Assembly: GCA_964509985.1 (NCBI GenBank)
Contig: CAZDZQ010000007.1
Coordinates: forward strand, 2,139 to 66,138
Reading direction: 5' to 3'
Origin: an uncultured Candidatus Peribacteria bacterium
GTDB taxonomy: Bacteria > Patescibacteriota > Gracilibacteria > CAIRYL01
Length of the DNA: 64,000 bases
Within the stretch, counting starts at the first letter, position 1. The number at the start of each line of letters is the position of its first letter. The notes beneath the pieces were generated by a model, which worked only from the letters and a program-made list of their open reading frames with translations, ran no database searches and was not told where the DNA came from. A program made the translations under genes and the position numbers. Of the stretch, positions 3-12,290 are shown one piece after another.

Positions 3-227
3 CAGACTTCGATAGTAACAGCAAGAAATGCACCTGCTCATAAAAGAGCTATTCATTCTTTAAAAGAATTTGGTATACATATAGATCAAATGTTTTTATT
101 AGGAGGAGTAAAAAAAGAAAAAATATTAAAGACATTAAGACCTCACATATTTTTTGATGACCAAAAAACTCACTTAACAGAAGTTATACCATCTGTTCAT
201 ATTCCATTTTTTGATCCAAATAACTAG
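3..227 (+). CDS. 5'-nucleotidase family protein, C-terminal fragment (5' end lies outside the window)
   Basis: Frame 3 reads QTSIVTARNAPAHKRAIHSLKEFGIHIDQMFLLGGVKKEKILKTLRPHIFFDDQKTHL...FDPNN with a TAG stop at 225-227. The TAR..APAH...LGG...IFFDDQ..H pattern resembles the PF06189-type 5'-nucleotidase C-terminus. Confidence 0.5.
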   Translation, partial: QTSIVTARNAPAHKRAIHSLKEFGIHIDQMFLLGGVKKEKILKTLRPHIFFDDQKTHLTEVIPSVHIPFFDPNN

Positions 228-314
228 TGCCCATGCTAAAAACTTCTCAAAACACAGCAAAAACTCGTGATATACTTTTGCAGAAGCAATAAAGGTGTAA
301 TTTTATTTTAAAAT

Positions 315-782
315 ATGGAAAAGAATTTTCAACAATGGGCAAAAGAAAAAATAAATATAGAAAAAAAAGATTCTTATAAAATTTTCTGTAAAAAACGAGA
401 AATTTGGATGGCAAAAATAGGTGTAAATATCGGGAATGAAAGCAGTAAAGATTCCCCTTTTTTTCGTCCTATTCTTATATTAGAAACCTCTATGGGAGGA
501 GACTTGATTTTAGGAATTCCGCTCACATCTCAATATAATGAAAAAATGAATAAGTTTTTAGTTCCTATATCTCACCCAAAACTTTTAAAAAAATCTTTTG
601 TACAACTAAATCAAGTAAAAATTTTTTCACGAAAACGATTAGAACGAAATTTTGATATAAAAATTTCTTCTGAAGAATTGTATACAATAAAAAATCGGCT
701 CCAAGAGAAAGTCTTGAAGCCTCGATTGAGTGAAAAAACTCACTCTATTGTGAATCGGATTTCTAATGAAAACCTCAATTGA
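315..782 (+). CDS. PemK/MazF-family toxin-like protein (mRNA interferase fold), no adjacent antitoxin ORF
   Basis: 155-aa ORF. Motif KREIWMAKIGVNIGNE...FFRPILIL...GIPLTS...VQLNQVKIFSRKRL matches the (E/D)IW..G.N.G.E...RP.L(I/V)L ... P.TS ... Q.R..D..RL signature of PemK/MazF-like toxins. Ends in a rare TGA. Confidence 0.6.
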   Translation: MEKNFQQWAKEKINIEKKDSYKIFCKKREIWMAKIGVNIGNESSKDSPFFRPILILETSMGGDLILGIPLTSQYNEKMNKFLVPISHPKLLKKSFVQLNQVKIFSRKRLERNFDIKISSEELYTIKNRLQEKVLKPRLSEKTHSIVNRISNENLN

Positions 783-856: not shown

Positions 857-1948
857 ATGGAAACTCCTCAAAACACCACCCCAACCATCTTTCCCCAAAT
901 AAAAAACCTGCTCCAACAAGCACGAAAATCTGTTGTGCAGAGTGTGAATACTACAATGGTATACACCTACTTTGAAATTGGGCGAATAATTGTAGAACAC
1001 GAACAAGGAGGAGCATTGCGAGCGGAATATAAAAAAGAAACTTTAAAAATTCTTTCTCAGCAACTTAAAAAGGAGTTTGGAAAAGGGTTTTCTACAACAA
1101 ATTCAGAAAATATGAGGAAATTTTTTCTTGCATATCAAAAATCCCAGACACTGTCTGGGATTTCTGAAACTAAAAAATTACTTTCAAATAATTCTGAAAA
1201 ACAGCAGACTCTGCCTGCCAAATCTCAAAACTTGCCTGTAAAAAATTTTCCAAATAATTTTACTCTTTCTTGGTCACACTATGTTCTGTTGATGAGACTA
1301 GATGATCAAGAACGAAATTTTTATGAAAAAGAATCACAAATAAATAATTGGTCTTTGCGTGAATTAACCCGTCAATTTGATTCTTCTCTTTTTGAAAGAG
1401 TGGCGTTGAGTCGAGATAAAAAAGGAGTGATAGATAATAATTTGAAAAAATATCACTCTCCAGAAAACCCAGAAGATTCTTTAAAAAATCCATATATTTT
1501 GGAGTTTTTAGGATTAGATGAATCAAAAAAATATTCTGAATCAGAATTAGAACAAAAAATTATTGATAATTTAGAACATTTTTTATTGGAACTGGGAAAA
1601 GGTTTTACTTTTGTAGGACGACAACAACGATTTACTTTTGAGGAACAGCATTTTTTTGTAGATTTGGTTTTTTATAATCGATTACTAAAATGTTTTGTGG
1701 TGGTAGATTTAAAAATAGGAAGAATAAAACATCAGGATTTGGGGCAAATGCAAATGTATGTGAATTATTATGATCGATTTGTAAAAACTGATGAAGAAAA
1801 TTCTACTATTGGAATTTTACTTGCAAAGGATAAAAATGAAACTTTGGTAGAAATTACACTTCCAGAAAATAGTAATATTTTTGCAAAAGAGTATAAACTC
1901 TATTTACCAACAAAAGAAGAGTTAAAAAATGAAATAGAGAACTTTTAA
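857..1948 (+). CDS. DUF1016 / YhcG-type PD-(D/E)xK nuclease domain protein
   Basis: 363 aa. N-terminal IKNLLQQARKSVVQSVNTTMVYTYFEIGRIIVE and C-terminal FFVDLVFYNRLLKCFVVVDLKIGRIKHQDLGQMQMYVNYY (D...D/ExK core) are typical of YhcG/DUF1016 proteins often found inside type I R-M loci. Confidence 0.75.
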   Translation: METPQNTTPTIFPQIKNLLQQARKSVVQSVNTTMVYTYFEIGRIIVEHEQGGALRAEYKKETLKILSQQLKKEFGKGFSTTNSENMRKFFLAYQKSQTLSGISETKKLLSNNSEKQQTLPAKSQNLPVKNFPNNFTLSWSHYVLLMRLDDQERNFYEKESQINNWSLRELTRQFDSSLFERVALSRDKKGVIDNNLKKYHSPENPEDSLKNPYILEFLGLDESKKYSESELEQKIIDNLEHFLLELGKGFTFVGRQQRFTFEEQHFFVDLVFYNRLLKCFVVVDLKIGRIKHQDLGQMQMYVNYYDRFVKTDEENSTIGILLAKDKNETLVEITLPENSNIFAKEYKLYLPTKEELKNEIENF

Positions 1949-1954
1949 AAAATT

Positions 1955-2000
1955 ACAACAATAACCATGCAAAAAATAACCGAAGACAGCATCGAAAAAA
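1955..2000 (+). repeat. 46-bp direct repeat, copy 1 (covers the rhuM start and first 11 codons)
   Basis: acaacaataaccatgcaaaaaataaccgaagacagcatcgaaaaaa is identical to 2998-3043. Confidence 0.95.
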
Positions 2001-3007
2001 ACACTCTTCAAAAATTCTCAAACTTTGTTTTATTTAAAACAGAAAAAGGAAAAGTTAATATTGATGTTTTTTTTCAAAATGACACTCTTTGGCTTACCCA
2101 AAAAATGATGGCAGAACTTTTTGAAATACAAACTCCCGCAGTTTCAAAACACTTAAAGAACATTTATGAAGAAGGAGAATTGCAAAAAAATGCAACTCTT
2201 TCCATTTTGGAAATAGTTCAAAAAGAAGGAAATAGAGAGGTTAAAAGAAAAGTTGAATATTATAATCTAAAAGCTATTTTATCTGTTGGATATCGTACTA
2301 ATTCACAACGATCTATAGAATTTAGAAAATGGGCAAATGAAGTTTTGCATGAATATGTGATAAAAGGATTTGCTATAGATGATGAAAAACTGAAAGAAAA
2401 TAAACATTTTGGAAAAGATTATTTTGATGAAATGCTCGAAAGAATTCGAGAAATCAGGATGAGTGAGCGAAGACTTTATCAAAAAATAACAGATATTTAT
2501 GCTTTATCTGCTGATTATGATTCAAAAAGTTCCATTACCAAACATTTTTTTGCAACAGTACAAAACAAACTCCACTGGGCAATTACAGGAAAAACAGCTG
2601 CAGAAATAATCTATACGCAGGCAGATGCTACAAAAATTTATATGGGACTCAAAAACTGGAAAAATTTTCCTGATGGAAAAATTTTAAAAAAGGATGTAAC
2701 CATCGCAAAAAATTATTTGAATGAAAAACATATTGATAAATTGAATAGAATTGTTACTTCATATCTTGACATTGCAGAGAGTCGAGCAGAAAATGAAACA
2801 GTGATGAATATGAAAGATTGGGATAGATATTTAATACAGTTTTTAGAGCTTACCAATCGTCCAATTCTTAAGGATTCAGGAGAAATATCTATGCTTGAGG
2901 CAAAATTAAAAGCAGAAACAGAATATGAAAAATTTAGGATTATTCAGGACAAAAACTATATTTCAGATTTTGATAAAGAAATTTCTCATCTTTTAAAACA
3001 ACAATAA
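1967..3007 (+). CDS. rhuM: RhuM-family protein with a chimeric N-terminus borrowed from hsdR
   Basis: 346 aa. TLWLTQKMMAELFEIQTPAVSKHLKNIYEEGEL, EYYNLKAILSVGYRTNSQRSIEFRKWANEVL and MSERRLYQKITDIY are characteristic RhuM motifs. The first 11 aa, MQKITEDSIEK, equal the HsdR N-terminus. Confidence 0.8.
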   Translation: MQKITEDSIEKNTLQKFSNFVLFKTEKGKVNIDVFFQNDTLWLTQKMMAELFEIQTPAVSKHLKNIYEEGELQKNATLSILEIVQKEGNREVKRKVEYYNLKAILSVGYRTNSQRSIEFRKWANEVLHEYVIKGFAIDDEKLKENKHFGKDYFDEMLERIREIRMSERRLYQKITDIYALSADYDSKSSITKHFFATVQNKLHWAITGKTAAEIIYTQADATKIYMGLKNWKNFPDGKILKKDVTIAKNYLNEKHIDKLNRIVTSYLDIAESRAENETVMNMKDWDRYLIQFLELTNRPILKDSGEISMLEAKLKAETEYEKFRIIQDKNYISDFDKEISHLLKQQ

Positions 3008-3043
3008 CCATGCAAAAAATAACCGAAGACAGCATCGAAAAAA
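2998..3043 (+). repeat. 46-bp direct repeat, copy 2 (covers the hsdR start and first 11 codons)
   Basis: Identical to 1955-2000. The two copies are 1,043 bp apart. Confidence 0.95.
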
Positions 3044-6000
3044 GTTTTATAGAACAACTGGTAGAAACTCATAAGTATGAATATTTTTATGGTCCAGAAA
3101 TTTCTCCAACTTCAGAAAATCCTCAACGAGAAAATTATTCTTCGGTATTGCTAGAAAAACACCTCAAAGAATCTCTGAGAAAATTAAATCCAGATGTGCC
3201 AGAATCTGCACGAGCAGAGGCTTTTCAAAAAATTCGTACACTTGGTGGAGGAAATGATATTATGGAAAACAATGAAAAATTCCATATTTATCTTACCGAA
3301 GGAATCACTGTTGAGTATTTTCAAAACGGAGAAAGTTCGAGTGAAATCGTAAAATTGATAGATATTCAAAACCCAGAAAATAATTCTTTTTGGGCGGTAA
3401 ATCAATTTATCGTACAAGAAAATAATAATGAAAAACGCTTTGATGTTGTTATTTTTGTAAATGGAATGCCTTTGGTATTTGTAGAACTCAAAAATGCAAA
3501 CGATGAAAAAGCCACTTTGCAAAAAGCCTTTACGCAAATTCAAAACTATAAAAACGCTACCCCAAGTATTTTTTATTATAACGCTTTGTGCATTATTTCT
3601 GATGGAATAGATGCGAGAACTTCCAGTCTTTCTGCTCCATTTTCTCGATATTTAGCATGGAAAAATCCAGAAGAAAACAGTTCATCATCCCCAAAAAATT
3701 TTACTGAATTACAAATAATGACAGAAAAAATGCTGAAAAAATCAGTAGTTTTAAATCTTATTCGCTATAATACCGTTTTTGAATCAGATGAAAAAAAAGA
3801 CGAAAATTCTGGACTTATTACCAAAATAAAAATAAAAAAAGTAGCAGCTTATCATCAATATTATGCGGTAGAAAAAGCAGTAACACAAACCTTGCGAGCG
3901 ACAAATGCGGAAACAGGAGATAGAAAAATTGGAGTGGTGTGGCATACTCAAGGATCAGGAAAATCATTAAGTATGGTGTTTTATACAGGGCGAATCGTAG
4001 TAGAACCGCAAATGAAAAATCCAACAATAATTATTTTAACCGATAGAAACGATTTGGATGATCAACTTTTTTCAACTTTTGGAAATTGTATTGGTTTACT
4101 TCGCCAAACTCCAGAACAAGCACATTCTCGTGCAGAATTAAAAAAATTACTGAAAAGAAATGCTGGAGGAATTATTTTTACAACACTGCAAAAATTTTCT
4201 GCAGATGAAGGAAAAAACATTTTTGATACTCTTTCAGAACGAAAAAATATTGTAGTTGTTGCAGATGAAGCCCATAGAAGTCAGTACGGGTTTTCTGGAA
4301 AAATTTCTGATGAAACTGGTGAGTTGAAATATGGAAATGCAAAATATTTGCGAGATGCTCTACCAAATGCTTCATTTTTAGGATTTACTGGAACGCCAAT
4401 TGAAGAAAAAGATAGAAATACCAAAAATGTTTTTGGAGAATATATTGATGTATATGATATCGCTCAAGCGGTAAAAGACGGAGCAACAGTCCCTATCAGT
4501 TATGAATCTCGACTGATTAAAATAAAAATGGATAGAACAGCATTGGCAAAAATTGATTATGCCGTTGATGAAGTGCTGTGTGAAAACGACGAACAACGAG
4601 AAGATGCCAAGAAAAAAAATGCACAAATAAATGCGATTATTGGGAATGAAGACCGATTAAAAGATGTGGCGACAGATATTGTTTCTCATTTTGAAATGCG
4701 TCAAAGCGTATTTGAAGGAAAAGGAATGATTGTTGCTATGACCCGAGAAATAGCGGTAAAACTTTATTCTGAAATTATAAAACTTCGCCCCAGTTGGCAT
4801 TCTGATGATTTAGATTCTGGAAAAATAAAAGTAGTAATGACGAGTTCTACAAGTGATCCAGAAAATTTTCAACCGCACCATACTTCAAAAAAAGACCGAA
4901 AAAATCTAGCACTTCGCATTAAAGATGCTCATGATCCATTACAATTGGTTATAGTGCAGTCTATGTGGCTCACAGGTTTTGATGCACCCAGTTTGCACAC
5001 GATGTATATCGACAAAAAAATGAAAGGAGCAAATCTTATGCAGGCCATTGCACGAGTAAATCGGGTATATAAAGACAAACCTGCGGGATTAATTGTTGAT
5101 TATATTGGTATTGGGCAAGACCTCAAAAATGCTATGGCAACCTATATAGAAAGCGGAGGAACGGGAGAATCGGTGGTTGATATGAAGACTGTTATTAGAG
5201 GATTATTAGAAAAATTTGAAATAGTAGAACAAATGTTTTTTGGATACGATTATAAAAAATATTTTTCTGGAAAAATTTCTGAAAAACTTCAAATTATCCT
5301 AGAAACTGCCAATTTTATTTTGGAAGATGAAAACAAAAAAAATAGATTTTTGGCAGAAGTTTCAAAACTTTCTCAATTGCTAGTAATGGCGTTTCCAAGT
5401 GATGAAGCTGAAAAAATAAAAGATGAAGTCGCTTTTTTTCAAGCCATAAAAACTCGTATTCAAAAATTCTCTTTTTCTGGAAGTGGAGAAAAATCAGATT
5501 TTGAAGTACAAACAGCCATTAAACAAATTGTAGACGATGCCCTTTCTAGTGAAGGAGTTATTGATATTTTTGAAGCAGCAGGGGTAAAAAGCCCTTCTGT
5601 CAGTATTTTATCTCATGAATTTTTACAAGAAGTGAAAAATATGAAGCAAAAAAATATTGCATTTGAACTTCTCAAAAAATTGATAAATGACGAGGTAAAT
5701 ATCCGAAAAACTCAGGATATTATTCAGGGGAAAAAATTTTCTGAAATGCTTACGGGTGTTATTACTCGATATCACAACAATCAAATTGATACTGCGCAAG
5801 TGATAGAAGAGCTTTCTCAAATTGCTACAGAAATGAATTTGGAAGATGAACAATATGAAAAATCTGGACTCGTACGAGAAGAATATGCTTTTTATAAAGT
5901 ATTAAAAGAAAATTCTTCTACTTCTTTTTTAAATGATGAAAAAATGAAAGAACTAATTCATGTCATCACAGAAACTATTAGAAAAAATGCCACTGTTGAT

Positions 6001-6144
6001 TGGAGTCAAAAACGAAATGTAAGAGCAAAATTACGATTAACCGTAAAAAAAATATTGATAAAATATGGATATCCACCAGATTTAGCACGAATGCAAGCGG
6101 ATAAAGTTTTGAACCAAGGAGAATTATTGGCAGAAAATTTTTAA
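3010..6144 (+). CDS. hsdR: Type I restriction enzyme R subunit (HsdR), full length
   Basis: 1,044 aa. N-terminal PD-(D/E)xK (RFDVVIFVNGMPLVFVELKN). Helicase motifs GVVWHTQGSGKSLSMVF, VVADEAHRSQ (DEAH), FLGFTGTP, QSMWLTGFDAP and QAIARVNRV. C-terminal helical region typical of HsdR. Confidence 0.92.
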   Translation: MQKITEDSIEKSFIEQLVETHKYEYFYGPEISPTSENPQRENYSSVLLEKHLKESLRKLNPDVPESARAEAFQKIRTLGGGNDIMENNEKFHIYLTEGITVEYFQNGESSSEIVKLIDIQNPENNSFWAVNQFIVQENNNEKRFDVVIFVNGMPLVFVELKNANDEKATLQKAFTQIQNYKNATPSIFYYNALCIISDGIDARTSSLSAPFSRYLAWKNPEENSSSSPKNFTELQIMTEKMLKKSVVLNLIRYNTVFESDEKKDENSGLITKIKIKKVAAYHQYYAVEKAVTQTLRATNAETGDRKIGVVWHTQGSGKSLSMVFYTGRIVVEPQMKNPTIIILTDRNDLDDQLFSTFGNCIGLLRQTPEQAHSRAELKKLLKRNAGGIIFTTLQKFSADEGKNIFDTLSERKNIVVVADEAHRSQYGFSGKISDETGELKYGNAKYLRDALPNASFLGFTGTPIEEKDRNTKNVFGEYIDVYDIAQAVKDGATVPISYESRLIKIKMDRTALAKIDYAVDEVLCENDEQREDAKKKNAQINAIIGNEDRLKDVATDIVSHFEMRQSVFEGKGMIVAMTREIAVKLYSEIIKLRPSWHSDDLDSGKIKVVMTSSTSDPENFQPHHTSKKDRKNLALRIKDAHDPLQLVIVQSMWLTGFDAPSLHTMYIDKKMKGANLMQAIARVNRVYKDKPAGLIVDYIGIGQDLKNAMATYIESGGTGESVVDMKTVIRGLLEKFEIVEQMFFGYDYKKYFSGKISEKLQIILETANFILEDENKKNRFLAEVSKLSQLLVMAFPSDEAEKIKDEVAFFQAIKTRIQKFSFSGSGEKSDFEVQTAIKQIVDDALSSEGVIDIFEAAGVKSPSVSILSHEFLQEVKNMKQKNIAFELLKKLINDEVNIRKTQDIIQGKKFSEMLTGVITRYHNNQIDTAQVIEELSQIATEMNLEDEQYEKSGLVREEYAFYKVLKENSSTSFLNDEKMKELIHVITETIRKNATVDWSQKRNVRAKLRLTVKKILIKYGYPPDLARMQADKVLNQGELLAENF

Positions 6145-7588: not shown

Positions 7589-9223
7589 ATGAGTATAGAT
7601 AACATAGATAAAAACGACTCTAAAGCATTAACCGAAAAAGAAATTCAAATTCAAGAAGCCGAGTTAAAATTAGCAAAACAAAAATTAGAACTCGAAAAAC
7701 AAAAATCTAGCACAGAAACAAAAACAAAAACAAAAATAGATGAAATTAAAGAAAAATTTAGAAAAGGTGCTATTAAACTTGCACTAGGAAGTACAATTGG
7801 AGGAGTTGCTATAACAGCACTTTCAGCATTATCTGGTTCTGATAAAAATTCAACAAAAGAAGCAATAAATGAATCCATTGAAACCTTGACTGATGATAAA
7901 AAATCAACATTAGAAAAATTTTTAAGTTTTATTTCCAATATCACCAAACTATGGAATGGAGATGATGAAAATAAAAATGAAGATAAAAAAAATGTTGATA
8001 AATCTATTAACTTAAGAAAAGAATATTCAGGAAATGGATCATTATTAGATATGGCTCTTTATCTTATAGGTAAAAATGAATCAAGCAATGGAACTAATGT
8101 TTTAAATATTAATGATGGTGGTGCTATTTCTTTTGGTATTTTTCAATTTCAAAAAGAATATTTACAAGGATTTATAGAAACATTAAATAATTCAAAACCA
8201 AAACAAGCAACAAAACTTAATGAACTTATTAAAAAAATAAAAATATATAAAAATCAAAAATCAATTCCTGCTGAAGAATTAAAAAACTTAAAAAATGAAG
8301 CCATAGAAATTTCTAATACATGCAAACACGAACAATTAGCATATATGAGAGATGTAATTGTTCCAAATTCTATATCAAGTGTAACAGAATCTCTACCTTC
8401 ATTTTTGAAAAACAATAGAAGCGATATAACAACTGTTATGATTTTGAATATAGTTCATCAGTTTGGAACAAAAAATAGAAAAAATATAATAATAAAAGCA
8501 GGAGAAAATATTACCACAGAAGAAGAATTTCAAGAAAATTTAATTAAAATTGCACCCACATTTGTAAATCAAGGAGATACCAAAAAAGACAAAACAAAAG
8601 CGGAAATAATAAAAAAAGTGATGATAAAACGTCTTAAAGAGTTGCATAATTTAAAAAATACCAAAAGAAATCCTGTAAAAATTGAACAAAATGCAGAATA
8701 TAAAATTCCAAAAAATGTATTAACAAACAAAAATGCATTAATTCAAAAATATAATATTGAAACACCAAATAAACGCCTTATTTCCATTGCAGATTATCAT
8801 AATAATACTTTATGGATTTTTAACCATGGACAAGTTATATCTTTTCCAATGGCTGGATCTAAAAAAGAAAAAGGGAACGGAGAAGGGCTGGGAACAAAAG
8901 AAAATTCACACAAAACACCAACTGGTGATTTTAAATTAAGTGTAAAAAACAATACCAATGATCCTAGTGCTATTGCAGGAGCAAATGGGCAAGCAAATAT
9001 TATTGGAGCAACTATACATATGGATGGATTAGATACAAATAATAAAAATACAAGAAGTAGAAATATATTAACCCACGGTTGGAAAATTTTTGATAAAAAT
9101 AATAATCTTACAAGGAGTACAGGATGTATACATCTTTCAGGAGAAGACTCTGTAAAATATGCGAATTTAATACAGAAAGAAATTGATAATAATAAAAATG
9201 TTTATATGAAAATAATGAGTTAA
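7589..9223 (+). CDS. Membrane-anchored cell-wall enzyme: possible SLT/lysozyme-like domain plus C-terminal L,D-transpeptidase (YkuD) domain
   Basis: I chose the ATG at 7589 because the track ORF start at 7409 overlaps the upstream gene. Coiled-coil N-terminus and TM segment GAIKLALGSTIGGVAITALSAL. IGKNESS...GGAISFGIFQFQ resembles the ES...GA.G..Q lytic-transglycosylase motif. C-terminal HKTPTGDF...ILTHGW...TRSTGCIHLS matches the YkuD H..(S/T)xGC catalytic motif. Confidence 0.6.
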   Translation: MSIDNIDKNDSKALTEKEIQIQEAELKLAKQKLELEKQKSSTETKTKTKIDEIKEKFRKGAIKLALGSTIGGVAITALSALSGSDKNSTKEAINESIETLTDDKKSTLEKFLSFISNITKLWNGDDENKNEDKKNVDKSINLRKEYSGNGSLLDMALYLIGKNESSNGTNVLNINDGGAISFGIFQFQKEYLQGFIETLNNSKPKQATKLNELIKKIKIYKNQKSIPAEELKNLKNEAIEISNTCKHEQLAYMRDVIVPNSISSVTESLPSFLKNNRSDITTVMILNIVHQFGTKNRKNIIIKAGENITTEEEFQENLIKIAPTFVNQGDTKKDKTKAEIIKKVMIKRLKELHNLKNTKRNPVKIEQNAEYKIPKNVLTNKNALIQKYNIETPNKRLISIADYHNNTLWIFNHGQVISFPMAGSKKEKGNGEGLGTKENSHKTPTGDFKLSVKNNTNDPSAIAGANGQANIIGATIHMDGLDTNNKNTRSRNILTHGWKIFDKNNNLTRSTGCIHLSGEDSVKYANLIQKEIDNNKNVYMKIMS

Positions 9224-10811: not shown

Positions 10812-12290
10812 CTATTTCCCTAAATCTAAATAATGGTCAATTCTAATTTGACCTACAAAATCGTCTACATGTGAAATTAAAATCATTGCACCTTTAAATG
10901 AATCTAACGCTTTTGCAATCACAGGAATATGTCTAAAATTTATATGATTTGTTGGCTCATCCAAAATTAAAAGACCTGGTTTCATCAATACCAACCTACA
11001 AAACGCCACAAGACCTTTTTGCCCCTCTGAAAGTGAACCTACCTTAGAATTAATAATTTCTCCATTTATCAAAAAACCAGATGCTGTTTTTCTCATAAAT
11101 TCTTCAATATTTTTTCCTTCAAATGTTGCTTCATCAATTGCATCAATCAATGTATCTCTAACCGTTGCATTAAAATCTAAGTTTGAAAAATCTTGAGTAT
11201 AATATCCAATTTTTACATCTGGATTTAAAAAGATTCCATCTTGCGTTCCTTTTGAAAGAGTTCTTAAAAGTGTTGTTTTTCCAATTCCATTTGGACCAGA
11301 TAACAATAAATGTTCATTTTTTCTAATTTCTACAGCAACTTCTTTATCAAACAATTCATGATTTTTCATGATTTGTAATTTTGTAATTTCCATAAATAAT
11401 CCAGAAGTTCCCTCTTGTAAAGGAATTTCAAAATCATTTATTGTTTTATCTTCTTTTCTAACTTCTACCATATTATCTTCTGCATCACTCGCTACTTCTC
11501 TCATGCGTTTTGCAACAGCTCGAAGCTTTCCTCCTTTATGAGCAAAAACATTTGCTTTTTCTTTTTTTGCTTGAATTTCTTTTAATAATCGAGCATTTTT
11601 CATTTCTTCTCGTTTTCGCTGTGCTTCAATTTCATCCACTACAGAATAATAATCCCCCATATATTTTTGCACTGTTTTAGAATGAACATCTAAATATAAA
11701 ACTCCATCTGTAAATAAATTTAAAAAATCAGCATCATGTGAAATAACAAGAACTGTTTTTTCATACATCATCAAAAAACCTATCAAATGCCCAATCCCCT
11801 CTGCATCCAAATTATTTGTTGGCTCGTCTAAAAGCAAAATATCCGGATCTTGAATTAATGCTGAAGCCAAAAGTAATCGAGCTTTTTGCCCTCCAGAAAA
11901 ATCTTTAATGAGTTTTTCAAATGGCGTTGAAAAATTCACAGCATCTAATGCTTTTTCAATTCTTCTGTCTATATCATAAATTTTTTCTTCTCCAGAAAAT
12001 TGATCTTCAAAAAACTCCCGAACATTTTTTTCATTATATTTACTATCCATTGTTTGCCGTTGAATAGCGATACTTGCCCCTTGATCAATATTTACCTTTC
12101 CATCTTGTCGAATTAATTCTCCTGTTATAAGCTTAAAAATAGTACTTTTCCCTGCACCATTTTGCCCCATAAGTGTAAATTTTTGCCCTTGAGCAATTGC
12201 GAAAGATGCTTCTTTTAAAATAATTTTTTCACTTTCTTTATATTCAAAATCTACCTTGTCGAAACTTATTACATTTTTTGCTTTTGCCAT
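10812..12290 (-). CDS. ABC-F family ATPase (two tandem ABC domains, no membrane domain)
   Basis: 492 aa. Two Walker A sites (GQNGAGKST, GPNGIGKTT), two signature motifs (FSGGQKARL, LSEGQKGLV), two Walker B sites (LLLDEPTN, LILDEPTN) and a K/E-rich inter-domain linker. Confidence 0.85.
   Translation of the reverse strand: MAKAKNVISFDKVDFEYKESEKIILKEASFAIAQGQKFTLMGQNGAGKSTIFKLITGELIRQDGKVNIDQGASIAIQRQTMDSKYNEKNVREFFEDQFSGEEKIYDIDRRIEKALDAVNFSTPFEKLIKDFSGGQKARLLLASALIQDPDILLLDEPTNNLDAEGIGHLIGFLMMYEKTVLVISHDADFLNLFTDGVLYLDVHSKTVQKYMGDYYSVVDEIEAQRKREEMKNARLLKEIQAKKEKANVFAHKGGKLRAVAKRMREVASDAEDNMVEVRKEDKTINDFEIPLQEGTSGLFMEITKLQIMKNHELFDKEVAVEIRKNEHLLLSGPNGIGKTTLLRTLSKGTQDGIFLNPDVKIGYYTQDFSNLDFNATVRDTLIDAIDEATFEGKNIEEFMRKTASGFLINGEIINSKVGSLSEGQKGLVAFCRLVLMKPGLLILDEPTNHINFRHIPVIAKALDSFKGAMILISHVDDFVGQIRIDHYLDLGK

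Follow-up and report, generated by a model that had tools for sequence, protein, structure and literature searches.

How did a rhuM gene come to start with the same eleven codons as the hsdR gene that follows it? The question is raised by a 64,000-nucleotide stretch (the window) of contig CAZDZQ010000007.1 (C7) from an uncultured Candidatus Peribacteria bacterium, in which rhuM and hsdR are neighbours in a type I restriction-modification (R-M) operon. A 46-nt direct repeat brackets rhuM, and its second copy contains the start of hsdR. The initial annotation read this as a rhuM cassette inserted at, or duplicated from, the hsdR 5' end, and proposed that the locus may exist in plus and minus states. 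Our analysis suggests that the repeat is probably a scar of the recombination that joined rhuM to hsdR in a cargo-laden operon, not a part of a dedicated mobile element. The locus adds a clear case to a known class of recombination scars; what is uncommon is that both the start and the stop of the cargo gene are supplied by hsdR.

The repeat and the chimeric rhuM gene

The repeat (ACAACAATAACCATGCAAAAAATAACCGAAGACAGCATCGAAAAAA) occurs at window positions 1955–2000 (R1) and 2998–3043 (R2), 1,043 nt from start to start. The two copies are identical at 46/46 positions, so the mismatch-free repeat of the initial annotation stands. Shuffled windows (dinucleotide-preserving, n=100) gave 0 matches to the 46-mer, even with 3 mismatches allowed. 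The genome (1.13 Mb, 57 contigs) contains two copies, both at the rhuM/hsdR locus, and the metagenome contig collection contains 0 exact matches. Translation of the open reading frames (ORFs) at 1967–3007 (346 aa) and 3010–6144 (1,044 aa) confirmed that RhuM and HsdR both begin with MQKITEDSIEK. The repeat ends at the first base of codon 12 in both genes.

The genome is a 57-contig metagenome-assembled draft, in which a 46-nt repeat might mis-join strain variants. The Logan k=31 graph does branch at the repeat. Against an artefact, the independent Logan contig L045 (SRR8542060) matches C7 without a difference for 4,122 nt and ends at window 1984, exactly k−1 = 30 nt into R1, the point at which a de Bruijn path must branch if the repeat has two left contexts. 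Contig k141_541872 from ENA (ERZ27262694) has the same structure with both copies intact and shows 5 differences from C7 over 14.3 kb (window 2667, 6735, 9392, 9712 and 9714). Contigs C53 and C7 of the source genome share an overlap of exactly 141 nt, as expected of a MEGAHIT-type assembly at k=141. Because 141-mers span the 46-nt repeat and both flanks in two assemblies that differ by single-nucleotide polymorphisms, the structure is not attributed to assembly. The rhuM ORF is also intact and in frame over both junctions. The artefact that the initial annotation had named as a danger is thus hardly conceivable at the level of contigs.

The N-termini of both proteins were compared with those of their homologues. 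All 14 HsdR homologues read (68–70% identical) start with the same motif, for example MTTLNESHIEQNLIDLL, MFEITENSIEQNFIDLL and MLTENTIEQSLIEQLV compared with MQKITEDSIEKSFIEQLV in our protein, and the Pfam HSDR_N match in HsdR begins at residue 4. Therefore the 34 coding bases of the repeat are native to hsdR, where the initial annotation had placed the peptide. RhuM homologues begin differently (MTKKITIKKNSLEKF, MKKNDQQLEKISNF, MTKKITIKKNSLEKFNNFVIF in the 78% identical homologue P0002, MSKELEKFSNF and others). None has a start like MQKITEDSIEK; such a start would have undermined the cassette reading. Across some 150 rhuM loci this peptide is matched in frame at 4/11 residues at most, as it is in wrong frames. 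Alignments of RhuM homologues to our protein all begin at residue 10–19, and PADLOC models match it from residues 13–19. The sequence right after the repeat, NTLQKFSNF, is native to RhuM (compare KKNSLEKFNNF in a homologue). Because native sequence resumes immediately after the repeat, about 9 native rhuM codons were swapped for 11 hsdR codons. The initial annotation was wrong in placing the conserved region of RhuM about 25 residues downstream, as homology resumes at residue 12. Convergent N-termini were considered and rejected; the repeat takes in 12 nt of leader, and the peptide is found in no RhuM homologue.

The 997-nt segment between the copies lacks start and stop codons of its own, and its ends lie in A-runs (GAAAAAA/CACT and TTTTAAA/ACAAC, with the border at the slash). 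Between the stop codon of the upstream DUF1016 gene (1946–1948) and codon 47 of rhuM there is no in-frame ATG, GTG or TTG besides the ATG of R1. The conserved N-terminal strands of RhuM (residues 15–43 in a structure model) lie 5' of codon 47. Because no other start precedes codon 47 and these strands lie upstream of it, rhuM depends on the copied hsdR ATG, and initiation is predicted at 1967. A chimeric rhuM that uses a copy of the hsdR start, as first proposed, therefore holds up: no alternative start exists and the repeat is the hsdR initiation region. The stop is borrowed as well. It is the TAA at 3005–3007, in the hsdR leader (ACAACAATAACC) within R2, 2 nt ahead of the hsdR ATG. The tails of RhuM homologues beyond the conserved LLK are variable.

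The chimera is a member of the RhuM family. PF13310 (Virulence_RhuM) matches residues 77–330 on model positions 2–250 of 252 (E=5.4e-108), PDC-S05 matches residues 13–343 (E=2e-141), and the columns invariant across 22 RhuM homologues are all retained. Among RhuM homologues the N-terminal leader is of no fixed length or sequence. An AlphaFold model of RhuM (22 close homologues) has a mean pLDDT of 46, with only the N-terminal beta/helix domain moderately confident, and residues 1–11 are unstructured in this low-confidence model. Given the variable leader and the unstructured residues 1–11, the N-terminal swap is probably tolerated. A profile search of PDB sequences with RhuM returned no real match, hence no solved structure related by sequence. 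A T/C polymorphism at window 2667 between this genome and k141_541872 produces F234S in RhuM. RhuM-like proteins of R-M operons are predicted to be toxin-type effectors (Anantharaman et al. 2013, PMC3710099), and RhuM and DUF1016 are enriched beside type I systems (PMC9881135).

Flanking repeats at other rhuM loci

The initial annotation suggested looking for the same 46-bp sequence in other type I loci of this lineage. The exact 46-mer is absent from the metagenome contigs, and an hsdR 5' stub upstream of rhuM was found at four other rhuM-hsdR loci (L047/L048, L082, L133 and L148). The closest is L047/L048 (RhuM 76%, HsdR 68% identical), where a copy of hsdR nt 1–38, with 1 mismatch, lies 38 nt ahead of the rhuM ATG. 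This stub is a dead 23-codon ORF that is not fused to rhuM, which keeps its own ATG. The hsdR break is at +38 there versus +34 here, within 4 nt. At L082, L133 and L148 the hsdR downstream of rhuM belongs to the same family (40–50% identical to ours), and the stub upstream of rhuM has its own ATG and breaks off somewhere from about codon 14 to codon 30. Their differences from the live hsdR are like those between alleles and their frame is open, for example MTRITKNTIEEFAIELLERLGYQYIYS versus MSNKITENTIEEFAINLLEHLGYQYIYA. The four loci also indicate that rhuM commonly lies immediately upstream of hsdR. One feature of L047 is unexplained. The 11-mer AATTCATAATT stands at 7963–7973, directly after the upstream stub, and again at 9030–9040, 9 nt before the hsdR ATG.

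Flanking repeats were then quantified in a screen of 160 rhuM loci from the genome and metagenome collections. The longest exact flank-to-flank direct repeat was at least 16 nt in 17/125 rhuM loci, compared with 5/567 shifted windows from the same loci (p=1e-9), and the maximum in a cross-locus null was 15 nt. With blastn a flanking repeat was found at 29/120 rhuM loci versus 12/364 shifted windows (p=9e-11) and 14/233 neighbouring genes of similar size (odds ratio 5, p=3e-6), a roughly four-fold enrichment over the neighbouring genes. The strongest "control" matches were to cargo genes themselves. The repeats are 23–162 nt long and 76–97% identical, and their sequence is unrelated from locus to locus. 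In some cases the repeat covers the stop of the preceding gene and in others the beginning (start or 5' part) of the following one; several lie outside R-M loci.

Three other loci also have flanked cargo genes. In Methanolobus vulcani (NZ_FNCA01000015, 1697–4345) the structure is nested: a 5' stub of a flavin mononucleotide (FMN) reductase gene, a rhuM 5' stub, DUF1016, a second stub, rhuM and the intact FMN-reductase gene follow one another. DUF1016 lies between copies of a segment with the FMN-reductase 5' stub and the rhuM 5' end, and the repeats measure 81 nt (93%), 101 nt (86%) and 28 nt (96%). In a Candidatus Delongbacteria metagenome-assembled genome (SLFX01000019, 715–4200; locus L115) there are four leader copies of about 66–154 nt, 95–100% identical. 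Three of them (about 130 nt) run into the ATG and shared MKMG start of a Bro-N gene, rhuM and a Bro-N-like gene, so that adjacent cargo genes have a common N-terminal peptide. In the source genome itself a 44-nt direct repeat (41/44) encloses a second RhuM paralogue (C52:10951–11949, minus strand) and a 105-aa ORF. The copies at C52:10572–10615 and 11975–12018 correspond to the leader of the next gene, and no empty site for this rhuM was found in 25 relatives.

How the junction may have formed

A single recombination between two alleles is the simplest explanation of the locus and the one that we consider probable. The alleles would share the same hsdR and have different upstream neighbours, DUF1016-hsdR in one and rhuM-hsdR in the other. 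One crossover would be homologous, in or beyond hsdR. The other junction would be illegitimate and guided by A-run microhomology between hsdR (...GAAAAAA) and rhuM (...AAAAAAAC). At this point the closest homologue (P0002) reads ATC AAA AAA AAT, our rhuM ATC GAA AAA AAC and hsdR ATC GAA AAA AGT. Together these steps would amount to homology-facilitated illegitimate recombination (HFIR) and yield an insertion with long target duplication. The in-frame product would have been retained because rhuM gains the hsdR initiation signals while hsdR stays intact. With identical initiation regions from −12 to +34, RhuM and HsdR are probably translationally coupled. The allele-like divergence of the stubs at other loci fits donor and recipient copies over a staggered cut, and the identical copies here would point to a recent event or to identical alleles.

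Transposon-like and integrase-based mobility was considered. No integrase or transposase was found in the operon by Pfam, PADLOC or contig annotation, there are no inverted repeats at the ends of the insert (2001/2997), and the repeats at other loci have no common sequence or length. Transposition and site-specific integration are excluded on these grounds. A transposon or insertion sequence would also have to explain a 46-nt duplication without terminal inverted repeats or transposase. An integrase element or integron cassette, judged without an attC model, does not agree with the lack of an integrase and with locus-specific repeats of 23–162 nt.

Several observations count against a one-step recombination between alleles. 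Neither an empty site (DUF1016, one repeat copy, hsdR) nor a donor-like allele (rhuM with its native start beside this hsdR) was found in the collections searched. Because neither was found, we infer the order of events and the one-step mechanism. Five genomes of the same genus have neither this rhuM nor this hsdR, the closest HsdR in representative genomes is 55% identical, and exact-protein look-ups of HsdR and DUF1016 returned only the same, plus, arrangement. In a genome of 28% G+C, microhomology in A-runs carries little weight. The G+C content of the insert (0.287) equals that of the genome (0.284), thus nothing marks the insert as recently foreign. To the left of the repeat the similarity extends for another 9 nt (CTTTTAAAA) if one 5-nt indel is allowed (1942–2000 versus 2990–3043, 59/54 nt), which a clean one-step model does not explain. 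Finally, use of the copied ATG is a prediction from the reading frames. The claim that a rhuM segment was inserted at, or duplicated from, the hsdR 5' end is therefore upheld in part. The structure is what target duplication leaves and the scar recurs, and either side of the junction may have been the resident. Because rhuM so often immediately precedes hsdR, insertion of a cassette into hsdR is only one history of two that are equivalent.

The same scar could have arisen in two steps. In an older rhuM-hsdR pair with an orphan hsdR stub upstream of rhuM, a small deletion between A-runs would later have taken out the stub's end together with the leader of rhuM and its first 9 or so codons, fusing the rest of the stub in frame to rhuM. 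Unfused stubs at L047, L082 and L133, where rhuM has its own ATG, are what the older state would look like, rhuM directly upstream of hsdR is common, and both borders of the 997-nt segment do lie in A-runs. This history needs two events, however, and no intermediate was found. The copies here are identical at 46/46 positions, compared with 78–97% for old stubs elsewhere. We consider it unlikely. It is highly improbable that gene conversion or template switching produced the upstream copy and that selection for matched translation or common regulation of RhuM and HsdR kept it. Identical regions from −12 to +34 would initiate similarly, and the three adjacent cargo genes of L115 with one leader of about 130 nt and an MKMG start would suit such selection. 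Yet neither a regulator site nor an RNA structure was found, the 46-mer was not found conserved outside the locus, the stubs elsewhere are dead fragments not fused to rhuM, and duplication needs no such function.

The plus and minus states of the initial annotation bring in a further alternative, in which a rhuM cassette, mobile or phase-variable, uses the repeats as its functional ends and frequently loops out and re-enters. For RecA recombination 46 nt is above the minimal length, flanking repeats are enriched around rhuM in many phyla, and the C52 paralogue is also flanked, by its 44-nt repeat. These points are outweighed by the lack of a recombinase gene in or near the locus, by repeats that differ in sequence and length (23–162 nt) from locus to locus with no common site, and by the absence of the exact 46-mer from metagenome contigs. 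The plus state alone is present in three public assemblies, and k=31 Logan contigs cannot separate the states. A working cassette is thus very unlikely, and nothing points to a programmed switch. Under recombination between alleles the two copies would be a passive substrate for RecA-type events. Since 46 nt exceeds the minimum for RecA-dependent exchange, rare deletion to a scarless DUF1016-hsdR junction, or rare amplification, is plausible. The collapsed allele (DUF1016 flank, one repeat copy, hsdR flank), if present, would read ...TTTTAAAAAATT followed by GAAAAAAGTTTTATAG.

The recurrence of the scar and the enrichment of flanking repeats around rhuM point to ordinary recombination at conserved hsd gene ends as a route of defence-island growth that requires neither integrase nor transposase. 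The embedding of defence genes in R-M operons is usually inferred from gene content. Here the junction is kept at single-base resolution, and the 46-bp repeats 1 kb apart offer a concrete recombination substrate. A bolder proposal, which we regard as doubtful, is that RhuM-type and other single-gene defence candidates such as DUF1016 are recombinase-free mobile cassettes whose duplicated piece of a neighbouring gene serves as a portable homology arm. If so, a cassette would loop out, travel as DNA and enter any genome with a similar hsdR without breaking hsdR. Restriction operons would then be platforms for cassette capture, and the population would be a mixture of rhuM-plus and rhuM-minus cells.

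The host operon and comparison with known systems

HsdR with nuclease, helicase and C-terminal domains is encoded in one operon with hsdM and hsdS, which identifies a type I R-M system. The window begins 2,138 nt into C7; hsdS lies just upstream at C7:194–1432, and hsdM is at C53:1207–2721, with C53 joined to C7 by L045. The gene order is hsdM, SoFic, Bro-N-like (PDC-S13), AbiD, hsdS, 5'-nucleotidase (PDC-S08), PemK-like, DUF1016 (PDC-S02), RhuM (PDC-S05) and hsdR. Seven of these 10 genes are accessory, and PADLOC assigns all of them except the PemK-like gene (6/7) to defence families, known or candidate. The seven are probably anti-phage genes. A promoter and terminator scan found no plus-strand terminator between DUF1016, rhuM and hsdR, and promoter-like sites were no commoner than in shuffled sequence. 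Features of the locus are listed in Table 1.

Table 1. Coordinates of the repeat copies and genes at the rhuM-hsdR locus, in window positions
Feature	Position	Strand	Remarks
Repeat copy 1 (R1)	1955..2000	+	copy of hsdR −12 to +34; source of the only rhuM start codon (1967–1969) and of codons 1–11
Repeat copy 2 (R2)	2998..3043	+	native setting: hsdR leader, ATG at 3010, hsdR codons 1–11; also the last three residues of RhuM (KQQ) and its stop
Chimeric rhuM ORF	1967..3007	+	346 aa; residues 1–11 from HsdR; PF13310; PADLOC candidate PDC-S05
997-nt inter-repeat segment	2001..2997	+	body of rhuM; starts near native codon 10 and runs to the conserved ...LLK at the C-terminus
hsdR, intact	3010..6144	+	1,044 aa; HSDR_N, SWI2_SNF2/ResIII, T1R_D3, T1RH-like_C; TIGR00348
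DUF1016/YhcG PD-(D/E)xK nuclease gene	857..1948	+	Pfam DUF1016_N and YhcG_C; PADLOC PDC-S02; stop 6 nt before R1, in the frame of rhuM
PemK/MazF-like gene	315..782	+	Pfam; cargo of the same operon
5'-nucleotidase-family gene, 3' end	3..227	+	PADLOC PDC-S08; cargo between hsdS and the PemK-like gene
22-nt direct repeat CAAAAACTCGTGATATACTTTT, second copy	258..279	+	orphan hsdS tail (KTRDILLQKQ, then stop)

A mirror image of the scar at the hsdR start is found at the end of hsdS. The first copy of CAAAAACTCGTGATATACTTTT is in the hsdS 3' end (..KTRDILLPRLMKGEVLLD, then stop) at C7:1377–1398, 761–740 nt before the window start. The perfect 22-nt pair, 1,019 nt apart, brackets the 5'-nucleotidase gene. 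Within hsdR a 20-nt exact repeat (TTTTCTGGAAAAATTTCTGA) at window 4291–4310 and 5263–5282 is probably due to chance in an AT-rich gene. Four relatives of the same class (G030, G036, G040 and G060) have many in-frame TGA codons in their rhuM and hsdR homologues. They presumably read TGA as an amino acid; the source genome does not.

Elements with att repeats and integron cassettes resemble this locus in that direct repeats duplicate the end of a target gene, which stays intact. They differ in that no integrase and no conserved attC-like site (no attC model was run) are present here, and the repeats are locus-specific and of variable length. HFIR, as defined in PMC3240628, and arrays built by sequential displacement, such as effector-immunity arrays of type VI secretion systems (PMC5361080) and orphan modules of Rhs and contact-dependent inhibition systems, share with it a homologous anchor and a microhomology junction. 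Repeated events there stack genes and leave truncated remnants of the anchor. Those arrays pile displaced 3' tips and immunity genes downstream, whereas hsdR 5' stubs and an hsdS 3' stub surround the cargo here, where we infer the mechanism.

Accessory genes are well known in type I R-M operons. Examples are PrrC in EcoprrI, RhuM-like and Doc toxins (PMC3710099), DUF1016 and RhuM near hsdS (PMC9881135) and Vibrio cholerae VPI-2 (PMC11411939). As in those operons, RhuM, DUF1016, Fic, AbiD and PemK-type genes lie between hsdM, hsdS and hsdR. Those reports cover gene content and function, not junction scars or an N-terminus shared by cargo and hsdR.

The closest parallel is insertion with long target duplication, in which direct repeats of the local target, tens to hundreds of bp long, flank R-M units (Nobusato et al. 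2000; Furuta, Abe & Kobayashi 2010, PMC2853133). The cases in PMC2853133 have repeats of variable length, no mobility genes and an enrichment of flanking repeats; two involve 46-bp repeats that overlap a gene end, and one is a gene fusion. Direct repeats of a local target, variable length, the lack of transposase and integrase, and gene fusion are all found here too. Furuta et al. require a direct repeat of >30 bp found nowhere else in the genome, and ours is present in two copies identical at 46/46 positions. No mobility gene is in or next to the insert, of which rhuM is the sole gene. Their screening rule also calls for R and M genes in the insert, so the locus falls outside the operational definition though it works like the described cases. 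In those cases an R-M gene pair is inserted and empty-site genomes prove the insertion, whereas here a single accessory rhuM lies inside an R-M operon and no empty site was found. The locus thus extends the idea of insertion with long target duplication from R-M genes to their cargo. It differs from the Furuta cases also in its target, which is the start region of hsdR, and in an insert that takes both its start and its stop from that target.

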